DNA from: a bacterium
Lineage (GTDB): Bacteria > UBP15 > UBA6099 > JAJRTR01
Length of the DNA stretch: 64,000 bases
NCBI GenBank assembly: GCA_024278215.1
Contig: JAJRTR010000052.1
Location: forward strand, 1-64,000
Direction of reading: 5' to 3'
A model generated the notes under the pieces. The model searched no databases. It saw only the letters and a program-made list of their open reading frames with translations, and had not been told where the DNA came from. Shown piece by piece: positions 41,399 to 64,000 of the stretch (positions within the stretch are counted from its first letter, which is position 1; every line of letters starts with the position of its first letter). A program made the position numbers and the translations under genes.

Positions 41399-42076
41399 TC
41401 ATACCGAAAACGGCCGACCGTATTTCCCGCGCGACGCAATCTTATCGAGCGGTTTGCGCGGTCTCGCCTTCGGCTCATGGTCGGGCACACCGATAGTCAG
41501 CAGTGCGAGCAGATAGACGTCTTCCGGCAGGCCGAGATCGCTTTTCAACTCGGCGTACAAGTCGCTTTTCTTCTTTGCCGTATCGTTGTTGAACGCCCCG
41601 ACAATCGTCATACCGAGCCCCTGGTTGACCGCCTCGATACCCATGAAACCATAGGCTATGCCGAGTTGCTCGAATGTCCGCGCAAGTATCATCGCAGGCC
41701 CGTTCTCGGCAACGCAGAACAGTGGGTCCTCGAGCATCACCTTGTCGATAATCGCTTCGTTGACCTTCATAACGCCCGCCTCGACAAGTTCCATCAGGGC
41801 TTCCTTGTTTTTCGGTTTGTCCCACGCGCTGATGTCGCCGCATACGCCTATAACGACCGGCGCGGCTCCCACGAACTTCTGCCCTTTCGACAGTTTGACC
41901 AGCTTATCCTTTGTTTCACGGTCTTCGATGACCAGAAAATGCCAGGGCTGCACATTTTCCCACGAAGGCGCGCGCCGACCGGCTTCAAGTATTTTCAGTA
42001 TTTTTTCGTCCGGTACTTTTTCGTCCTTGAACTTCCTGATGCTGCGCCATTTCGCAATAGCTTCCGTCGCTTCCAT
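41399..42076 (-). CDS. Nitroreductase family protein
   Basis: WRSIRKF, APSWENVQPWHF, GLGMTIVG, RPRKPL. Confidence 0.92.
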   Translation of the reverse strand: MEATEAIAKWRSIRKFKDEKVPDEKILKILEAGRRAPSWENVQPWHFLVIEDRETKDKLVKLSKGQKFVGAAPVVIGVCGDISAWDKPKNKEALMELVEAGVMKVNEAIIDKVMLEDPLFCVAENGPAMILARTFEQLGIAYGFMGIEAVNQGLGMTIVGAFNNDTAKKKSDLYAELKSDLGLPEDVYLLALLTIGVPDHEPKARPRKPLDKIASRGKYGRPFSV

Positions 42077-42345: not shown

Positions 42346-42771
42346 TCAACCCGCGTTTATCTTGCGGGCGATGCGCGAGAGGGGATGCCCTTTGGCCTTG
42401 ATGTCGAGCCGGTTGAACCAGCCGAATGGAGTTCGCACGGAATCAAAACCCTGCTCTTTAAGGTTCGCATTCACGGAATCCATAATTTCTATCGCTTTCG
42501 CGGGCGCGCCGAGTTTTGCGAAAAGATGCGCGAAGGGATGCACGACGATGTTGCCTACTTTCAGCGCGCGCGCGTGAGAGGCGATTTCATCGGCAGCTTT
42601 CCCGGCGATTATTTCAGGGTTCTTTTCATCTTTACGCTCGACACACGTGTATACGATCAGCGCTTCTTCGACGTATGTCTCGCCGTCGCCGGGGTCCTCG
42701 ACAATGCCGCCGCGACCCTTTTCCGTTATCGTACATTTGAATGAATCCACGTGCCATATAAGCATTCTCAT
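42346..42771 (-). CDS. Stand-alone archaeal-type threonyl-tRNA synthetase editing domain (tRNA-Thr_ED, DTD-like fold)
   Basis: MRMLIWHVD, EEALIVYTCVERKDE, HPFAHL, TPFGW, KGHPLS; AGGAG upstream. Confidence 0.9.
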   Translation of the reverse strand: MRMLIWHVDSFKCTITEKGRGGIVEDPGDGETYVEEALIVYTCVERKDEKNPEIIAGKAADEIASHARALKVGNIVVHPFAHLFAKLGAPAKAIEIMDSVNANLKEQGFDSVRTPFGWFNRLDIKAKGHPLSRIARKINAG

Positions 42772-43080: not shown

Positions 43081-43626
43081 TTATGAGGGAAACGGCTTAT
43101 TATCTTTTATATCTTCATATAGCGTGCGATATTTGCCGCGAGTGTTTATTTTCGCCAGAATGCCACCTAATATGCGCCCCGGCCAGTACAGCTTCTTCAT
43201 ATCGATAAGCTCTACGAGATTACCATCCGGATCGCGAGTAAATACAAAATCTGTTCCAAGATTATTCTTAACCGGACAGATAAACTCTATTCCTTCTCTT
43301 TTTAAACGCTCCATAACTTTCGGTAGTTTTTTTACATCAAGTGCAAGGTGAGTTATTCCCGGCCTGTTCCAGACAACCTTCTGATGCTCTCCGCCTAAAG
43401 GCTGAAAATGAAAAAGTTCGACAAAACCGCCATTGCCGGTTCTTAACAGAAATAATGTGACCTTCGTGCCGTCCTCCAGCCCATATATGTCTCTTACCTG
43501 ATCCTCGGGTACATCCAGCGCTTCCAACAGAGGTATTCCTAATATCTCATGATAAAAACACAATGATTTTTGAATATCCGAGCAAGTGATTCCAACCTGA
43601 GCAAGCGATCTTACCATAATAATCAC
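43081..43626 (-). CDS. VOC/glyoxalase family protein
   Basis: QVGITCSDIQKSLCFY, VELF, GITHLALDV, TRDPDGNLVEL. Confidence 0.9.
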   Translation of the reverse strand: MIIMVRSLAQVGITCSDIQKSLCFYHEILGIPLLEALDVPEDQVRDIYGLEDGTKVTLFLLRTGNGGFVELFHFQPLGGEHQKVVWNRPGITHLALDVKKLPKVMERLKREGIEFICPVKNNLGTDFVFTRDPDGNLVELIDMKKLYWPGRILGGILAKINTRGKYRTLYEDIKDNKPFPS

Positions 43627-53697: not shown

Positions 53698-56433
53698 CTA
53701 CTTTTCACCATTTTTCTGCAATTCACTGAGTGTACCGCCGATACCTTGATCGTCCAGCAGTCGCAGGACCCCCTTGCTGATCTGGTCGCCCTGAGCAGCA
53801 ATATAGACATTTGAGTTGATGAGAATGTCTTCCCTTGTCATTTCGGTAAGGTTCCTGGCGAAATCGGCGTCTTCGATGCGACTGTTGGCTGCCATGAGGT
53901 TTATCTTCTCGACGCTGAGTTCGTCCATAACATGATAAAGTTTTCTCTCTTCGATGCCCATCGCCGCCCTGAGGTCGGACACATTATTGATGGCGTCATT
54001 GAATTTTTTGATGGGGTCCATTCCGGTCTGTATCATAAGAGAGTCTATCTGCGGGGAAACCGAAGGGGTATAGCTGTAGACATCGGGAGCCACCACAAGA
54101 TTAGCCGGCGTCGAGACCATAGTGCCGCGCACCTGTACATAAGGTTTCCCGGCGGGTGTCGTGAAGTCTGTCACACCGGAGCCGGCGGTTATAAGCTGGT
54201 CTGTCCAGTTGATGCCGTCGGAGCTTGCCCATACGTCGAATCCTGTTACTGCGTCATTGGTAACGCCGACAATACTTGCATCTATATTATCACCCACATA
54301 AGCGGGGTTGGTTCTGTAGGAACCGTTCGGCAAGTATTCGAAGAACCTGTGGCCGGTAATTTCATTGTTCCAGCCGGGATTGCTGTCAAGACTGTCCGCG
54401 ATCTGGGTTGTACCGTAGAAAATATCCATCTCATTTACGGGGCCGCCGTCTGTCCTGCCGCCGCCCATTACACGTTCGACATTCGACATGCGGAATGACG
54501 CATCCGGCTGTGCATTGAATTTAATAGTGAATCCATCCATCTGTCCGCCGGTTGCCATGTCGCAGTAAACTTCTTCATAAGCGCCGGCCTGCGTTATATC
54601 CGAGTTCGGTATCGAATCATAATTAGTCCTGCTTCCGGTTACTCCATAAACGCCGTCCCGGTATCCGGACAACCCGGCACTTAATGCCGGTTCTCCGACA
54701 CTATCTCCCTGGTCGCCGGTCCAGTCTGTACTGAGCGTGGTTATCTCGTCGATAGTGACAGCGCCGCTGCCGTCGAATACGGAAAAGTATGATTGCCATA
54801 TCACACTGCCCAGCGCGCCCCCGCCCCAGTACCTGACGGAAACTGTATAATCGATCGAACCGTCCGTCTGTGGATTCGCCGTGTTGACACTTATAACAAT
54901 GGAGTGTGTATTCGCTTTATCGGGAGAACTTGTTGTTTTTACATCGGTGCCGAGTTGCAGATATCCAGGGTTTCCGCTTGGATCGACATCGACCATGTTG
55001 TTGAGACTGCTCATCCACTCCTGTTGCGTGTCGATCAGGAGTGCTGCTCCGGTCCGGTCCGTCAGCTTGAGATTCGAGAGCCCCAGTGCATTCGCGTGCA
55101 GATTCAGGGCCGAGAGGTTGTCTCTCCAATTATCGCCGTTATCTGAGCCAATCTGGATCGAACCGGGGTCCGACAACTGGAGTGAAAGGTCGGTGACGGC
55201 CGGTGTGCCGTACTGTACTCCGTTGCTGTTAAGCGTAATCTCGGCCCGCAGGTATCGCTGATTGTAGTCAAAAGTAGCGCCGTTGTCGGTTATGGGAAGG
55301 GCGGTCCAGTCGCCGGGGAAAGCGGGATTGCCCGTCGCGCTTTCGTAAAGAACGATCTGCGCGCCCTGTCCGCCGGTGATAATGGAGTTATAGTTGAGAA
55401 CCGCCTGTCCGCCTGATGTTCTCGTGTCGATAGGGGCGGTGTAATAGGATGCGGGGTTGGCAGCGATGTCTGTGAAATATTGCGAATAGAAAACCGCCGG
55501 TCTGGTGTCGCCAAGGAGCGTGGAGCCGAAATACATTGCTACCGGTTCATTGTTTCTGTTTGTAAGCTGAAGGTCCCATTTCGAGCCGACATCGACCTCT
55601 ATGTCGACAGAAGCGAGTGTGCTGAAACTATTGGTGGCGGTTCTGTCGAAGGTAATTGTATTGCCTGCAATTACACAATTGCTGGCGTTCGAGAGGTTTG
55701 CTCCCGCTTCGAAAGTCAGCGTTCCCTTCAACTGGCCGGTACCACCGACAGTCTCACCACCGATATAGAGTCTTGCGGTATATTTTCCTGTTGTCGGGTC
55801 GTAGCCGCTGCCGGGGGCGCTGCCGTCTACCCATATATCCATCGTGTCGTCATTTATGTCGCCTATCGGATTGTTCCAGTGTGCCTGTGTGTTCCAGTCC
55901 TGATATGCGAGCTGCACATTGCCGGGTGCGCTGTTCAGGTCTATTAAAGACGAGTCGTAAACAGCGTTGGCGGACGCCCAGTCGGCCTGGGAGTCGAAAG
56001 TATATTGTTGGCCTGTCGCTCCGCTCAGCAGTTGTTTGCTGTTGAATGTAACCGTTTCGGAAAGCCTGTCGATTTCGGCGAGGATGGAATCGACTTCGTC
56101 CTGCATGTCCTGTATGTCCGACGAGGATAGAGTGGCTTCGTTGGATGCCCTTACGGCCAGATCGCGGCCCCGCTGCAACAGGCTGTGTATCTCTTTCATG
56201 CCGCCTTCCGCCGTCTGGATCATGGATAAAGCGTCCTGCGTGTTCTGTATCGCTGTGTTTAATCCGCCTATGGTGGCACGCAGATTCGAGGATATGGCTA
56301 TTCCGTGCGGGTCGTCCGCACCGCGGTTTATCCTTAGCCCCGACGAAAGTCTTTCCTTTATCGTTCCTGTTTTAGTGAAATGAGCTCTTCTGTCGTTATT
56401 ATTGACCATGGCCCAAAGACTATTGATTTCCAT
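53698..56433 (-). CDS. Large flagellin (911 aa) with two inserted beta-rich modules
   Basis: ERLSSGLRINRGADDPHGIAIS, IQTAEGG, TFNSKQLLSG; C-terminal LRAAMG, NSRIEDADFA. Confidence 0.9.
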   Translation of the reverse strand: MEINSLWAMVNNNDRRAHFTKTGTIKERLSSGLRINRGADDPHGIAISSNLRATIGGLNTAIQNTQDALSMIQTAEGGMKEIHSLLQRGRDLAVRASNEATLSSSDIQDMQDEVDSILAEIDRLSETVTFNSKQLLSGATGQQYTFDSQADWASANAVYDSSLIDLNSAPGNVQLAYQDWNTQAHWNNPIGDINDDTMDIWVDGSAPGSGYDPTTGKYTARLYIGGETVGGTGQLKGTLTFEAGANLSNASNCVIAGNTITFDRTATNSFSTLASVDIEVDVGSKWDLQLTNRNNEPVAMYFGSTLLGDTRPAVFYSQYFTDIAANPASYYTAPIDTRTSGGQAVLNYNSIITGGQGAQIVLYESATGNPAFPGDWTALPITDNGATFDYNQRYLRAEITLNSNGVQYGTPAVTDLSLQLSDPGSIQIGSDNGDNWRDNLSALNLHANALGLSNLKLTDRTGAALLIDTQQEWMSSLNNMVDVDPSGNPGYLQLGTDVKTTSSPDKANTHSIVISVNTANPQTDGSIDYTVSVRYWGGGALGSVIWQSYFSVFDGSGAVTIDEITTLSTDWTGDQGDSVGEPALSAGLSGYRDGVYGVTGSRTNYDSIPNSDITQAGAYEEVYCDMATGGQMDGFTIKFNAQPDASFRMSNVERVMGGGRTDGGPVNEMDIFYGTTQIADSLDSNPGWNNEITGHRFFEYLPNGSYRTNPAYVGDNIDASIVGVTNDAVTGFDVWASSDGINWTDQLITAGSGVTDFTTPAGKPYVQVRGTMVSTPANLVVAPDVYSYTPSVSPQIDSLMIQTGMDPIKKFNDAINNVSDLRAAMGIEERKLYHVMDELSVEKINLMAANSRIEDADFARNLTEMTREDILINSNVYIAAQGDQISKGVLRLLDDQGIGGTLSELQKNGEK

Positions 56434-61471: not shown

Positions 61472-61972
61472 GTGAATGAAGATTTTGTATTATGTGTAGT
61501 TCACTGTGTGCGTTTCGATGTTTTCAATAAGGTTCCGGTCGTTCTCCTCAAGGATGTTGAAGGCGACAGGTATCTGCCGATATGGATCGGGATGTTCGAA
61601 GCCACACAGATCGAGATTGCGCTGGAAAAAGTCTCCGTTCCCCGGCCGATGAGCCATGATCTCATGAAATCCATACTGGAAACATTCCACTTGAGCGCGG
61701 AATCGGTGAGGATTCATGATATAATAGATGGAACATTTCACGCGAAGATCATGGTGAAAAACACATCGGGCGCGGACGGCAATGAGCCTGTGGAAGTCGA
61801 CGCGAGGCCAAGTGACGCCATCGCTCTTTCGCTGAGAACCGACACACCGATATATGTCGCGCGAAAAATAATAGACGAAGCGGCGATTGTCGGCAAGGTG
61901 CCGGATGACGATGAAATGCAGAAATTCAAAGAATTCCTTTCCGACATCAAGCCCGGCGACTTCCGGGACTGA
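61472..61972 (+). CDS. Bifunctional nuclease family protein (DUF151)
   Basis: LPIWIGMFEA, RPMSHDL, GTFHA, DARPSDAIAL. Confidence 0.92.
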   Translation: MNEDFVLCVVHCVRFDVFNKVPVVLLKDVEGDRYLPIWIGMFEATQIEIALEKVSVPRPMSHDLMKSILETFHLSAESVRIHDIIDGTFHAKIMVKNTSGADGNEPVEVDARPSDAIALSLRTDTPIYVARKIIDEAAIVGKVPDDDEMQKFKEFLSDIKPGDFRD

Positions 61973-62033
61973 CTAAAGGCAATCCTGGAAATAGAAAGCT
62001 CAAGTGGACGCTATATAACTCAAGGAGTAGACC

Positions 62034-62228
62034 ATGTCTGTACAACCGGCTTCTTCACCAAATGACTATTATGGAGCATGGGGCGCGGCGCTCGCCCAGA
62101 TACTGTTTAATATGAGAGCGACAGCCGAGGTGCTCGCAGGCACTTATGACGAGATGGAAAAACACCAGGCACGCGCTCGCGAGACTTCATGGGAGCAAAA
62201 CATCTACAGAGTTGACATCCGGATTTAA
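62034..62228 (+). CDS. Small hypothetical protein
   Basis: AAGGAG upstream of the ATG; 64 aa; no recognised motif. Confidence 0.5.
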   Translation: MSVQPASSPNDYYGAWGAALAQILFNMRATAEVLAGTYDEMEKHQARARETSWEQNIYRVDIRI

Positions 62229-62770
62229 GGGCCGCGAAGGAATATGACCGGAGTCCCCCTTCGGCTCTTTCCATCTCATGCGGCGGCTCCGCGCGCAACA
62301 CATTTTTCGTTCTCCGTTCATTATCAAATTCGGCGGCAGCACTTCTTTATGTCCCAATTGCTTCAATTAAACAGATAAATGTATTACCATAGTGGCTGAA
62401 CGAAAACCCTAAAAGGACTATGGATAAAGGAATAATTGGCGAAAAGAGCAAACGAAGATCGGCAGAAAATATCAGGTACAAATACGAGGAAGACAGTTGT
62501 AATCGCATGTAAGCGATGTATGGCGTTTGAAAAAACGCAATCTTCGCAATAAAATCTTGAAAAGTGGTTGAGCGAAAAACTGATCCGTTAAGCCGGAATG
62601 TGTGAAAAGTGTTCGATATCGAGGCAGACGAAGGAGGCAATGCAACGCATTGTTGACTGAGGATAACGAAGATAGCGGGCAATTTGCGCACATCCCGGCA
62701 GGAGCAGGTTTCCGTTCAACCACTACCATAAATATCTGGCGACAAAATACAGGATTGCGAAGGCTGAACT

Positions 62771-64000
62771 ATGAGACTTTTGATGATACATTCAAATCCG
62801 TTTTCATTCGAGATTACGGACAAAACAAAGTTCGCGGAAGAGATAGTGCCGCCGGTTGTGGACAGGGCTGAAGTGGATAATGCGCTCGTGGTTTTTGCCG
62901 CTGTCGAGCAGCATGATGCCGTCGAGCAGGAAAAAGTTTGCGGGAAAGCTTTCGCTGAAATAAAAAAGACATACGAGAACGTGGGTGCGTCGATAATCGC
63001 TCTGTATCCATATTCACATCTTTCCAACCGGCTCGCGCCGCCCGAAGTGTCACTGCGCCTGTTGAAAAATCTGCGTGGCCTTCTGGAAGACATGCCGCTG
63101 GTTCAGTGTCCGTTCGGATGGTATAAAAAATTCAGCCTCAACGGGATCGGGCACCCTGTGAGCGAATCGAGCAGGGTGATAGAGATCGACGGTCGCCCGC
63201 GGGAACAGAAAGTTATGGGCCGTGGCCGCGAACATCCTGTCGCCGCCATGAACCAGCAGTTCCGCGAGGTCTTCCTCGAACTCGGCCTCGACGAAATGAT
63301 CAATCCGGCGATTATCGACGACTTCCACATCTACAAACAGTACGGCCCGGAAGCGCCACTTATCCTCGACAGGGTTTTCTATATCGCGGGCCTCGACCGG
63401 GCTGATATCGGACTTGGCAAAAGCAAACTCGCAATAATAAATAAAATAGTCCCCGGATTCGACAAAGAGGAACAACTGCAAGCCCTTATGCGCGAATATA
63501 AGGAAGCTCTGATCGAGGCCGACGATTTTCTCGAAGAATTTGCCCTCAGGCTGAAAATCAGCGGCGAACAGGCCGGCGAAATCCTCGAAAAAGCATTCCC
63601 CGAATTCAGGGAATTGACGCCTGTTCCCATGACGCGCACACTGCGCTCGCACATGACAAGCAACTGGTTTCCCGTGCTCCAGCGCATGAGAACTCGATCA
63701 ACGCTGCCCGTGAAACTCTTCTCCGTGGGGTCCCGTTTCAGACGCGAGCAGCGCCAGGATGCGCAACATCTCTACGAAAGCACATCCGCGTCAATTGTTG
63801 TCATGGACAACAATGTTACGATGGAAGACGGCAAAAAGCTGTCATACGACATCCTGAAAAAAATGGGGTTCAAGCGCTGCAAATTCGTAAAGAAAAAAGT
63901 CGCCAGCCGCTACTACGATCCGGAAACGGACACAGAGATATTCGTAAATTATAAAGGAGCACAGATCGAGGTCGGTAATCTTGGCTTCTACGCGCCGGAA
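62771..64000 (+). CDS. sepS: O-phosphoseryl-tRNA(Cys) synthetase (SepRS) with an N-terminal archaeal ThrRS-type editing domain; 3' end outside the window
   Basis: Manual translation gives 410 codons with no stop. Residues 1 to ~137: MRLLMIHS, LVVFAAVE, YPYSHLS, PFGWYKKF, GHPVSESSR. Then GREHPV, EMINPAII, YKQYGPEAPLILDRVFYIAGL, FPEF, TLRSHMTSNWF, KLFSVGSRFRREQRQDAQHL, SAS, SRYY. Confidence 0.92.
   Translation, partial: MRLLMIHSNPFSFEITDKTKFAEEIVPPVVDRAEVDNALVVFAAVEQHDAVEQEKVCGKAFAEIKKTYENVGASIIALYPYSHLSNRLAPPEVSLRLLKNLRGLLEDMPLVQCPFGWYKKFSLNGIGHPVSESSRVIEIDGRPREQKVMGRGREHPVAAMNQQFREVFLELGLDEMINPAIIDDFHIYKQYGPEAPLILDRVFYIAGLDRADIGLGKSKLAIINKIVPGFDKEEQLQALMREYKEALIEADDFLEEFALRLKISGEQAGEILEKAFPEFRELTPVPMTRTLRSHMTSNWFPVLQRMRTRSTLPVKLFSVGSRFRREQRQDAQHLYESTSASIVVMDNNVTMEDGKKLSYDILKKMGFKRCKFVKKKVASRYYDPETDTEIFVNYKGAQIEVGNLGFYAPE

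Follow-up and report, generated by a model that had tools for sequence, protein, structure and literature searches.

O-phosphoseryl-tRNA synthetase (SepRS) is, to our knowledge, the only known synthetase that charges a canonical tRNA with a non-canonical amino acid, and we know of no characterised SepRS that proofreads. The enzyme is also the workhorse of phosphoserine genetic-code expansion. A bacterial SepRS homolog carrying the serine-editing domain (ED) of threonyl-tRNA synthetase (ThrRS) at its N-terminus has been reported, together with the proposal that Ser-tRNA(Cys) arising from dephosphorylated Sep-tRNA(Cys) is edited in cis or in trans (Mukai 2017 mBio, PMC5424206). A later paper drew three ED-SepRS variants, modelled the fusion, noted a conserved serine motif and argued that fusion restrains the ED, bacterial tRNA-Gly having U73 (Mukai 2022 Front Genet, PMC8762117). 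Here we analyzed a gene of this kind (ED-SepRS) that runs across the end of a 64,000-nucleotide stretch of bacterial DNA (positions 1 to 64,000 of contig JAJRTR010000052.1, here C22; the whole stretch is called the window). It is a further member of a described, biochemically uncharacterised architecture, and the concept is not new. An earlier sequence-only reading of the window had implied that the fusion was new, with the caveat that an earlier report was possible. That caveat applies: the structural part of the reading stands and the novelty does not, as the architecture was published in 2017 and 2022 (Mukai 2017, PMC5424206; Mukai 2022, PMC8762117). None of the 10 clusters that we looked up matched the published ED-SepRS accessions. 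What is added here is that the fused form constitutes a large and diverse bacterial family with a conserved pocket and that it coexists with cysteinyl-tRNA synthetase (CysRS) and the cysK route; the present ED-SepRS is also a well-defined target for biochemistry.

The locus has much in common with the fusions described by Mukai: an N-terminal tRNA-Thr_ED in place of the SepRS extension, a short linker, a bacterial host, retained serine-recognition residues, a SepCysS gene that lies elsewhere behind a small SepCysSn-like open reading frame (ORF), and the proposed role in editing Ser-tRNA-Cys. It differs in coming from another genome and in its linker of 12-14 residues, compared with the published "20-amino-acid linker". 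Three variants were drawn there, against 42 among the best 120 matches here, although the supplementary tables of that work may list more. The solved archaeal SepRS enzymes (2du7 and 5x6c from M. jannaschii, 2odr from M. maripaludis, 2du3 from A. fulgidus) share the catalytic, insertion and anticodon-binding domains and the motifs TLRSHMTS, FRREQ and NxGxGVER, but they have an N-terminal extension of ~42-54 residues and no editing domain. The archaeal system also differs in that both tRNA-Cys genes here carry A37, not G37. Free-standing tRNA-Thr-EDs encoded beside archaeal clade VII SepCysS (Mukai 2017, PMC5424206) likewise tie an ED to the SepRS/SepCysS pathway, but there the two are separate, SepCysS-linked genes, whereas here the ED is covalently attached to SepRS.

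The window is G000:C22:1-64000 of a 66,302-base contig (genome of 4.55 Mb, 207 contigs, 95% completeness). The frame that the sequence-only reading had followed from the ATG to the window edge indeed holds 410 codons without a stop, and on the extended contig it ends at C22:64684, giving a protein of 637 residues (C22:62771-64684; protein label P0002; features in Table 1). Its absence from the ORF track, which had been remarked on, is explained by the fact that the ORF list shows it only if open ends are allowed. The start is well placed because M1 aligns with residue 1 of both the Pfam model and the solved ThrRS domains, and the Shine-Dalgarno-like GAAGG lies 7 nucleotides 5' of the ATG. All the motifs picked out by eye are present in the translation (MRLLMIH, YPYSHLS, PFGWYK, GHPVSESSR, GREHPV, KQYGPEAPLILDRVFY, TLRSHMTSNWF and FRREQ).

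A profile search with the full protein bears out the assignment of residues 1 to ~137 to tRNA-Thr_ED: residues 1-137 match positions 1-137 of the 137 in PF08915 (E 6.4e-37, 127.1 bits against a gathering cut-off of 30.2). In the PDB these residues match the EDs of archaeal ThrRS, which have a DTD-like fold (4rrf from M. jannaschii, E 8e-25; 1y2q from P. abyssi, E 4.5e-23). In the P. abyssi domain the side chains within 6 Å of the scissile bond are P80, F81, A82, H83, Y120, K121 and E134, the last contributed by the other subunit (Ahmad 2015, PMC4491819). A phmmer alignment to 1y2q places P80, Y81, S82, H83, Y118, K119 and E132 at the equivalent positions of the query, with five of the seven side chains identical and two changed conservatively. 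The mapping of Y120/K121/E134 to Y118/K119/E132, first made by eye, thus holds, and H83 corresponds to H83. The difference from the archaeal ThrRS domain is that the ED is here joined to SepRS, so that the presumed tRNA is tRNA-Cys. Conservation of the pocket was counted in an alignment (A1) of 42 fused proteins that are 40-81% identical to the query (Table 1).

The archaeal domain is a dimer in its solved structures (1y2q, 4rrf), and the same arrangement is predicted here. Two copies of residues 1-140, modelled together, scored 0.87 (best control 0.00), a result that may only mirror the solved dimers; the score mark used is reached by 20 of 30 solved homo-pairs and by 1 of 23 solved single chains. 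The runs share at least 96% of their contacts with pLDDT (per-residue confidence) of at least 94. In the predicted homodimer E132 is set across the interface near H83, with H83 contacting residues 132-134 of the opposite copy, for which likeness to the solved dimers may again be the explanation.

The remainder of the protein is SepRS, as had been proposed, and not the alpha subunit of phenylalanyl-tRNA synthetase (PheRS). Residues 151-636 match positions 43-531 of the 533 in the NCBIfam model sepS (TIGR00470) with 440.2 bits, above the cut-off of 380.65. The two PheS models score 84.6 and 84.8 bits, far below their cut-offs of 237 and 350, and match only the class II core (residues 288-445); the PylS model scores 38 bits. 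The solved SepRS chains 2du7, 2odr and 2du3 align end to end over residues 143-636 (E 1e-95 to 1e-110), and PheRS-alpha chains match the body at only ~1e-13. Model positions 1-42 are unmatched and residues 1-137 are the ED, which replaces the usual SepRS N-terminal extension in agreement with the sequence-only reading. The catalytic domain starts at G152-R-E-H-P-V, and the rest of it lies with the anticodon-binding domain beyond the window at C22:64001-64684. The motifs TLRSHMTS (290-297), FRREQ (323-327) and N423-I-G425-F-G-V-E-R have their counterparts at the aligned positions of 2du7 and 2odr. An Asn-X-Gly motif in the Sep pocket is described as conserved without exception among true SepRS enzymes and as changed in SepRS-like proteins (Mukai 2022, PMC8762117); here it reads N423-I-G425, and it is kept across the fused family. 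In the alignment of that family S341 and G427 do not vary, and at least 90% of members keep each of H294, T296, N423 and G425. The anticodon-binding domain is present, the alignment reaching model position 531 of 533 and the ends of the solved chains; the Pfam SepRS_C match is weak (22.9 bits, under the cut-off of 26.9).

An AlphaFold2 (AF2) model built with the 42 family members has a mean pLDDT of 83.4 and a predicted TM-score (pTM) of 0.43. Confidence in the ED is mostly at least 90 up to about residue 120 and 79-83 at residues 121-140, and it falls below 50 only at the junction (residues 141-152). In the model the ED is thus a module on a predicted flexible tether, with two well-folded modules flanking a low-confidence linker. 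The domain boundaries give a linker of 12-14 residues, in line with the ~12 first estimated, and among the 42 family members the linker is 10-16 residues long and not conserved in sequence. Judged by its sequence, ED-SepRS is an in-frame fusion in which both modules are full length and carry their family-defining residues.

Table 1. Features of the ED-SepRS gene in the window and conservation of its editing pocket.
Feature	Coordinates	Strand	Basis or conservation
Shine-Dalgarno-like GAAGG	62759..62763	+	read from sequence; consensus resemblance only
ED-SepRS gene, in-window part, residues 1-410 of 637	62771..64000	+	stop-free; relatives of 58-81% identity match full length
N-terminal tRNA-Thr_ED, residues 1-137, archaeal ThrRS serine-editing type	62771..63181	+	PF08915, PDB matches, AF2
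Flexible linker, about residues 138-152	63182..63226	+	AF2 pLDDT; varies among 42 family members
SepRS body, residues 151-410 in window	63221..64000	+	TIGR00470; solved SepRS alignment
P80			kept in 41/42 fused proteins
Y81			kept in 41/42 fused proteins
H83			kept in 40/42 fused proteins
G116			kept in 42/42 fused proteins
W117			kept in 42/42 fused proteins
Y118			kept in 39/42 fused proteins
K119			kept in 40/42 fused proteins
H128			kept in 40/42 fused proteins
E132			kept in 36/42 fused proteins

To assess how far the architecture extends, we searched 5.8 billion proteins, grouped in 90%-identity clusters, and obtained 910 SepRS matches; domain content was read from the best 120. Of these 120, 42 (including the query) carry both PF08915 and PF01409 and are 605-682 residues long, plus one partial protein of 530 residues. 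The count of proteins with the same architecture, which the sequence-only reading had left to be made, therefore stands at 41 other clusters among the best 120 matches. The fused proteins range from 81% down to 40% identity to the query and come from NCBI, JGI, ENA and Logan assemblies, and the fusion is also found in five metagenome-assembled genome (MAG) records titled "bacterium". Within the same order it occurs in 8 of 12 genomes (G002, G003, G005, G006, G007, G008, G010 and G011; contig ends truncate it in two of these). The other four, G001 (94% complete), G004 (78%), G009 (67%) and G012 (88%), gave no fusion, and neither did a sample of 28 more distant genomes. Recurrence of the in-frame architecture in 41 clusters besides that of the query and in 8 of 12 further genomes of the order shows that the fusion is real and not an assembly artefact.

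In a FastTree analysis of 120 SepRS bodies, three bacterial groups contain the fused proteins, which make up 23 of 24, 14 of 16 and 5 of 21 of their rows; the sole non-fused row of the first group is a partial protein. The ED state has to change at least 8 times on this tree, and starred branches force 6 of the changes. On a second tree, of 210 ED domains, the SepRS-fused EDs mostly cluster, and their label has to change at least 6 times, with 3 of the changes forced. These trees are quick and contain short, partial and possibly mis-started rows; gain and loss of the ED are ambiguous on them, and we claim no number of fusion events. The three EDs of the host (borne by SepRS, borne by ThrRS, and free) lie in three separate groups of the ED tree and are mutually 29-34% identical (34% for the SepRS-borne ED against that of the host's own ThrRS), which argues that the SepRS-borne ED is not a recent copy of the ThrRS one.

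Two proteins nested in a clade of ED-fused SepRS have a different N-terminus (FastTree). P0045 (903 residues) and P0065 (911 residues) carry an N-terminal pyridoxal phosphate (PLP) domain of SepSecS/Aminotran_5 type (SepCysS-type), followed by a complete SepRS in one chain. Set beside the ED fusions, they indicate that the N-terminus of bacterial SepRS carries either an editor or the next enzyme of the pathway. A phrase search returned no paper naming a SepCysS-SepRS fusion.

On balance we favour the reading that ED-SepRS would be a functional O-phosphoseryl-tRNA(Cys) synthetase with an archaeal-ThrRS-type ED, held on a tether of ~12 residues, that removes Ser-tRNA-Cys; we regard this as moderately probable. 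SepRS would charge tRNA-Cys with phosphoserine and SepCysS would convert the resulting Sep-tRNA-Cys to Cys-tRNA-Cys. The tethered EDs would pair into dimers on the SepRS oligomer, sample the flexible CCA end and hydrolyse Ser-tRNA-Cys, keeping serine out of Cys codons. SepCysS is a PLP enzyme that passes through a dehydroalanyl-tRNA intermediate. We infer that Ser-tRNA-Cys could form there if water, rather than sulfur, adds to the intermediate, which would account for the archaeal free-standing EDs being found beside SepCysS and not beside SepRS. It might also come from rare activation of serine by SepRS, or from loss of phosphate from Sep-tRNA-Cys, the source proposed earlier (Mukai 2017, PMC5424206). 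The fusion would confine a U73-reading deacylase to tRNA-Cys; the tRNA-Thr and tRNA-Gly of the host carry U73 too. If this is true, a SepRS with a built-in Ser-tRNA deacylase would show how Cys codons are protected in the two-step pathway, and such a deacylase could lower the serine background of engineered phosphoserine systems.

Removal of Ser-tRNA(Cys) by the ED is plausible and fits the findings made here. The host, which is uncultured, is bacterial by the flagellin gene in the window (Flagellin_N, Flagellin_C), its tRNA-Gly with U73 and the records of relatives, which are titled "bacterium". SepCysS, tRNA-Cys and cysS, which the sequence-only reading had named as genes to look for, are all present. 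The SepCysS gene (C65:4198-5316) scores 516.8 bits against a cut-off of 365.25. Directly 5' of it, with an overlap of 4 nucleotides, lies a 65-residue ORF (G000:C65:4004-4201, + strand; L004:1286-1483), which is conserved at 48-65% identity in the same place before SepCysS in 7 of 9 loci examined. The ORF has no PDB match better than E 0.36 and belongs to no Pfam family. On the strength of its position and conservation we label it a candidate SepCysSn adapter peptide. Its place before SepCysS fits the SepCysSn-SepCysS operon reported for a bacterium with a fused SepRS (Mukai 2017, PMC5424206).

The direct route to Cys-tRNA-Cys is present as well. The CysRS gene scores 411 bits against a cut-off of 340, and a cysE-like gene adjoins cysK in the genome. 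In the 13 genomes of the order SepRS and SepCysS mostly occur together; G001, which belongs to the same family and is 94% complete, has neither, which suggests that the two come and go together. CysRS is found in 12 of the 13, so the indirect route adds to the direct one and does not replace it. A divergent second SepCysS-like gene (338.6 bits, below the cut-off) was also noted. It lies in a cluster (G000:C121:14145-17677, - strand) with DUF169, TusA and a PALP (threonine-synthase-like) enzyme bearing an N-terminal Cys-rich segment, and this cluster may be a separate sulfur-transfer pathway.

Two tRNA-Cys(GCA) genes were found (G000:C6:58203-58275 and G000:C135:8112-8185), and each carries A37 and U73. 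Of 12 relatives, 9 have the C135 type at 92-96% conservation, among them the one without SepRS, and a tenth (G011) has it at 84%. The C6 type, with 81-86% identity, is confined to families f3 and f4; it lies near cysS in G004 and G010 and shows no clear link to SepRS. We considered whether it might be a tRNA-Cys dedicated to SepRS and rejected this: it is missing from SepRS-less G001, but it was not found in SepRS-bearing G002 and G005 either.

The neighbours of the fusion gene look unrelated to it and encode a GT2 glycosyltransferase, a methyltransferase and a BFN nuclease. In the loci of 10 relatives none of these neighbours, no SepCysS and no tRNA gene stands beside the fusion gene, and on these loci we rejected an operon link. 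An Rfam scan of 61900-62900 for a leader RNA gave only a chance-level snoRNA match (E 0.59), and promoter-like and terminator-like sites upstream are no commoner than in shuffled sequences.

Several observations weigh against an editing SepRS. Neither SepCysS nor tRNA-Cys lies beside the fusion gene in the 10 relatives' loci, and the indirect route is not essential in this host because the genome has CysRS and cysK with a cysE-like gene. ED-less SepRS proteins are interspersed among the fused ones on the SepRS tree; unless these are truncated gene calls, editing would be dispensable for close relatives. Pocket residues are also lost in part of the family, E132 in 6 of 42 fused proteins and Y118 or K119 in 2-3. 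In the P. abyssi domain the Y120A and E134A mutants remain active and catalysis proceeds largely via the tRNA 2'-OH (Ahmad 2015, PMC4491819), so the pocket conservation is supportive but not decisive. The origin of Ser-tRNA-Cys has also been questioned (Mukai 2022, PMC8762117). Finally, Mukai 2017 and Mukai 2022 report no activity for the fusion, and full-text searches of the open literature, in part restricted to papers from 2021 on, returned only these papers and one review and no biochemical test of an ED-SepRS.

The ED might instead be a non-catalytic module that replaces the N-terminal extension and serves dimerisation, binding of the tRNA acceptor or docking of SepCysS, hydrolysing no aminoacyl-tRNA. 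It sits exactly where SepRS model positions 1-42 are unmatched, P0045 and P0065 carry SepCysS at that same position (which would make the N-terminus a general attachment point), the model predicts that it dimerises, and pocket residues are missing from a few members of the family. However, the residues that matter for the editing pocket only (H83, the PFGWYK loop and GHPxSE) persist in 36-42 of the 42 proteins down to 40% identity, and a module with a structural role alone would not preserve them. We therefore regard a structural module as unlikely.

We consider it quite unlikely that SepRS is a mere carrier and that the ED acts in trans on U73 tRNAs mischarged with serine, mainly Ser-tRNA-Thr. 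All three tRNA-Thr genes of the host (on C193 and C199) have U73, the archaeal-style discriminator, the ED is of ThrRS type, and archaea are known to have free-standing EDs that edit in trans (Mukai 2022, PMC8762117). However, the only ThrRS of the host (G000:C196:16758-18653, - strand; NF003068, 601.8 bits against a cut-off of 484) is itself of archaeal type with an N-terminal ED, and this ED keeps its Y-K...E pocket intact, so that the SepRS-borne ED is not needed for tRNA-Thr. ThrRS-length matches are found in 11 of the 12 same-order genomes (the exception, G009, is 67% complete), and the tether to SepRS favours tRNA-Cys.

Cysteine is nearly isosteric with serine, and CysRS covers translation, so the indirect route may be mainly biosynthetic. 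The ED could then release the product of a tRNA-dependent cysteine synthase formed with SepRS and SepCysS, deacylating Cys-tRNA-Cys to free cysteine, with CysRS serving translation; if the ED acted on Cys, or on both Ser and Cys, the SepCysS-SepRS sister proteins would be the other half of one channelled machine. We think this very unlikely. The pocket holds the serine beta-OH by hydrogen bonding to the main chain and does not tolerate additional bulk (Ahmad 2015, PMC4491819), cysK and a cysE-like gene are already in the genome, and such a deacylase would also drain the Cys-tRNA-Cys made by CysRS. That an assembly or frameshift error joined two separate genes has next to no chance of being right, even in a fragmented MAG of 207 contigs, as the junction is the same in 41 further clusters, 8 of 12 related genomes and 5 named MAG records.

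Other genes in the window were noted in passing. One of them (53698-56433, - strand) encodes an unusually long flagellin of 911 residues with Flagellin_N and Flagellin_C ends, whose central ~670 residues have no family match.

The window also encodes a free-standing tRNA-Thr_ED paralog of 141 residues (42346-42771, - strand; Pfam E 3e-36), flanked by genes for a nitroreductase (41399-42076) and a glyoxalase/VOC protein (43081-43626). Its subfamily, which is large and bacterial, comprises 919 matches of 77-247 residues, with names from Chloroflexi, Anaerolineae, Bacillota and Binatia. All of the best 120 of the 919 have H, F and R in place of the pocket residues Y79, Y118 and E132, respectively, and 118 of them have N in place of K119. 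In 44 metagenome loci of at least 3 kb its neighbours include an ArsR-family regulator (14) and a DsrE-like protein (11), and no link to an aminoacyl-tRNA synthetase was seen in the loci examined. The protein is probably not a serine editor. We considered whether a free-standing ED in this host contradicts the argument that fusion restrains the ED, and rejected this on account of the different pocket of the paralog's subfamily. A further combination was found in P0357 (272 residues), in which a tRNA-Thr_ED is fused to a YbaK-type editing domain (PF04073), giving two editing modules per chain.

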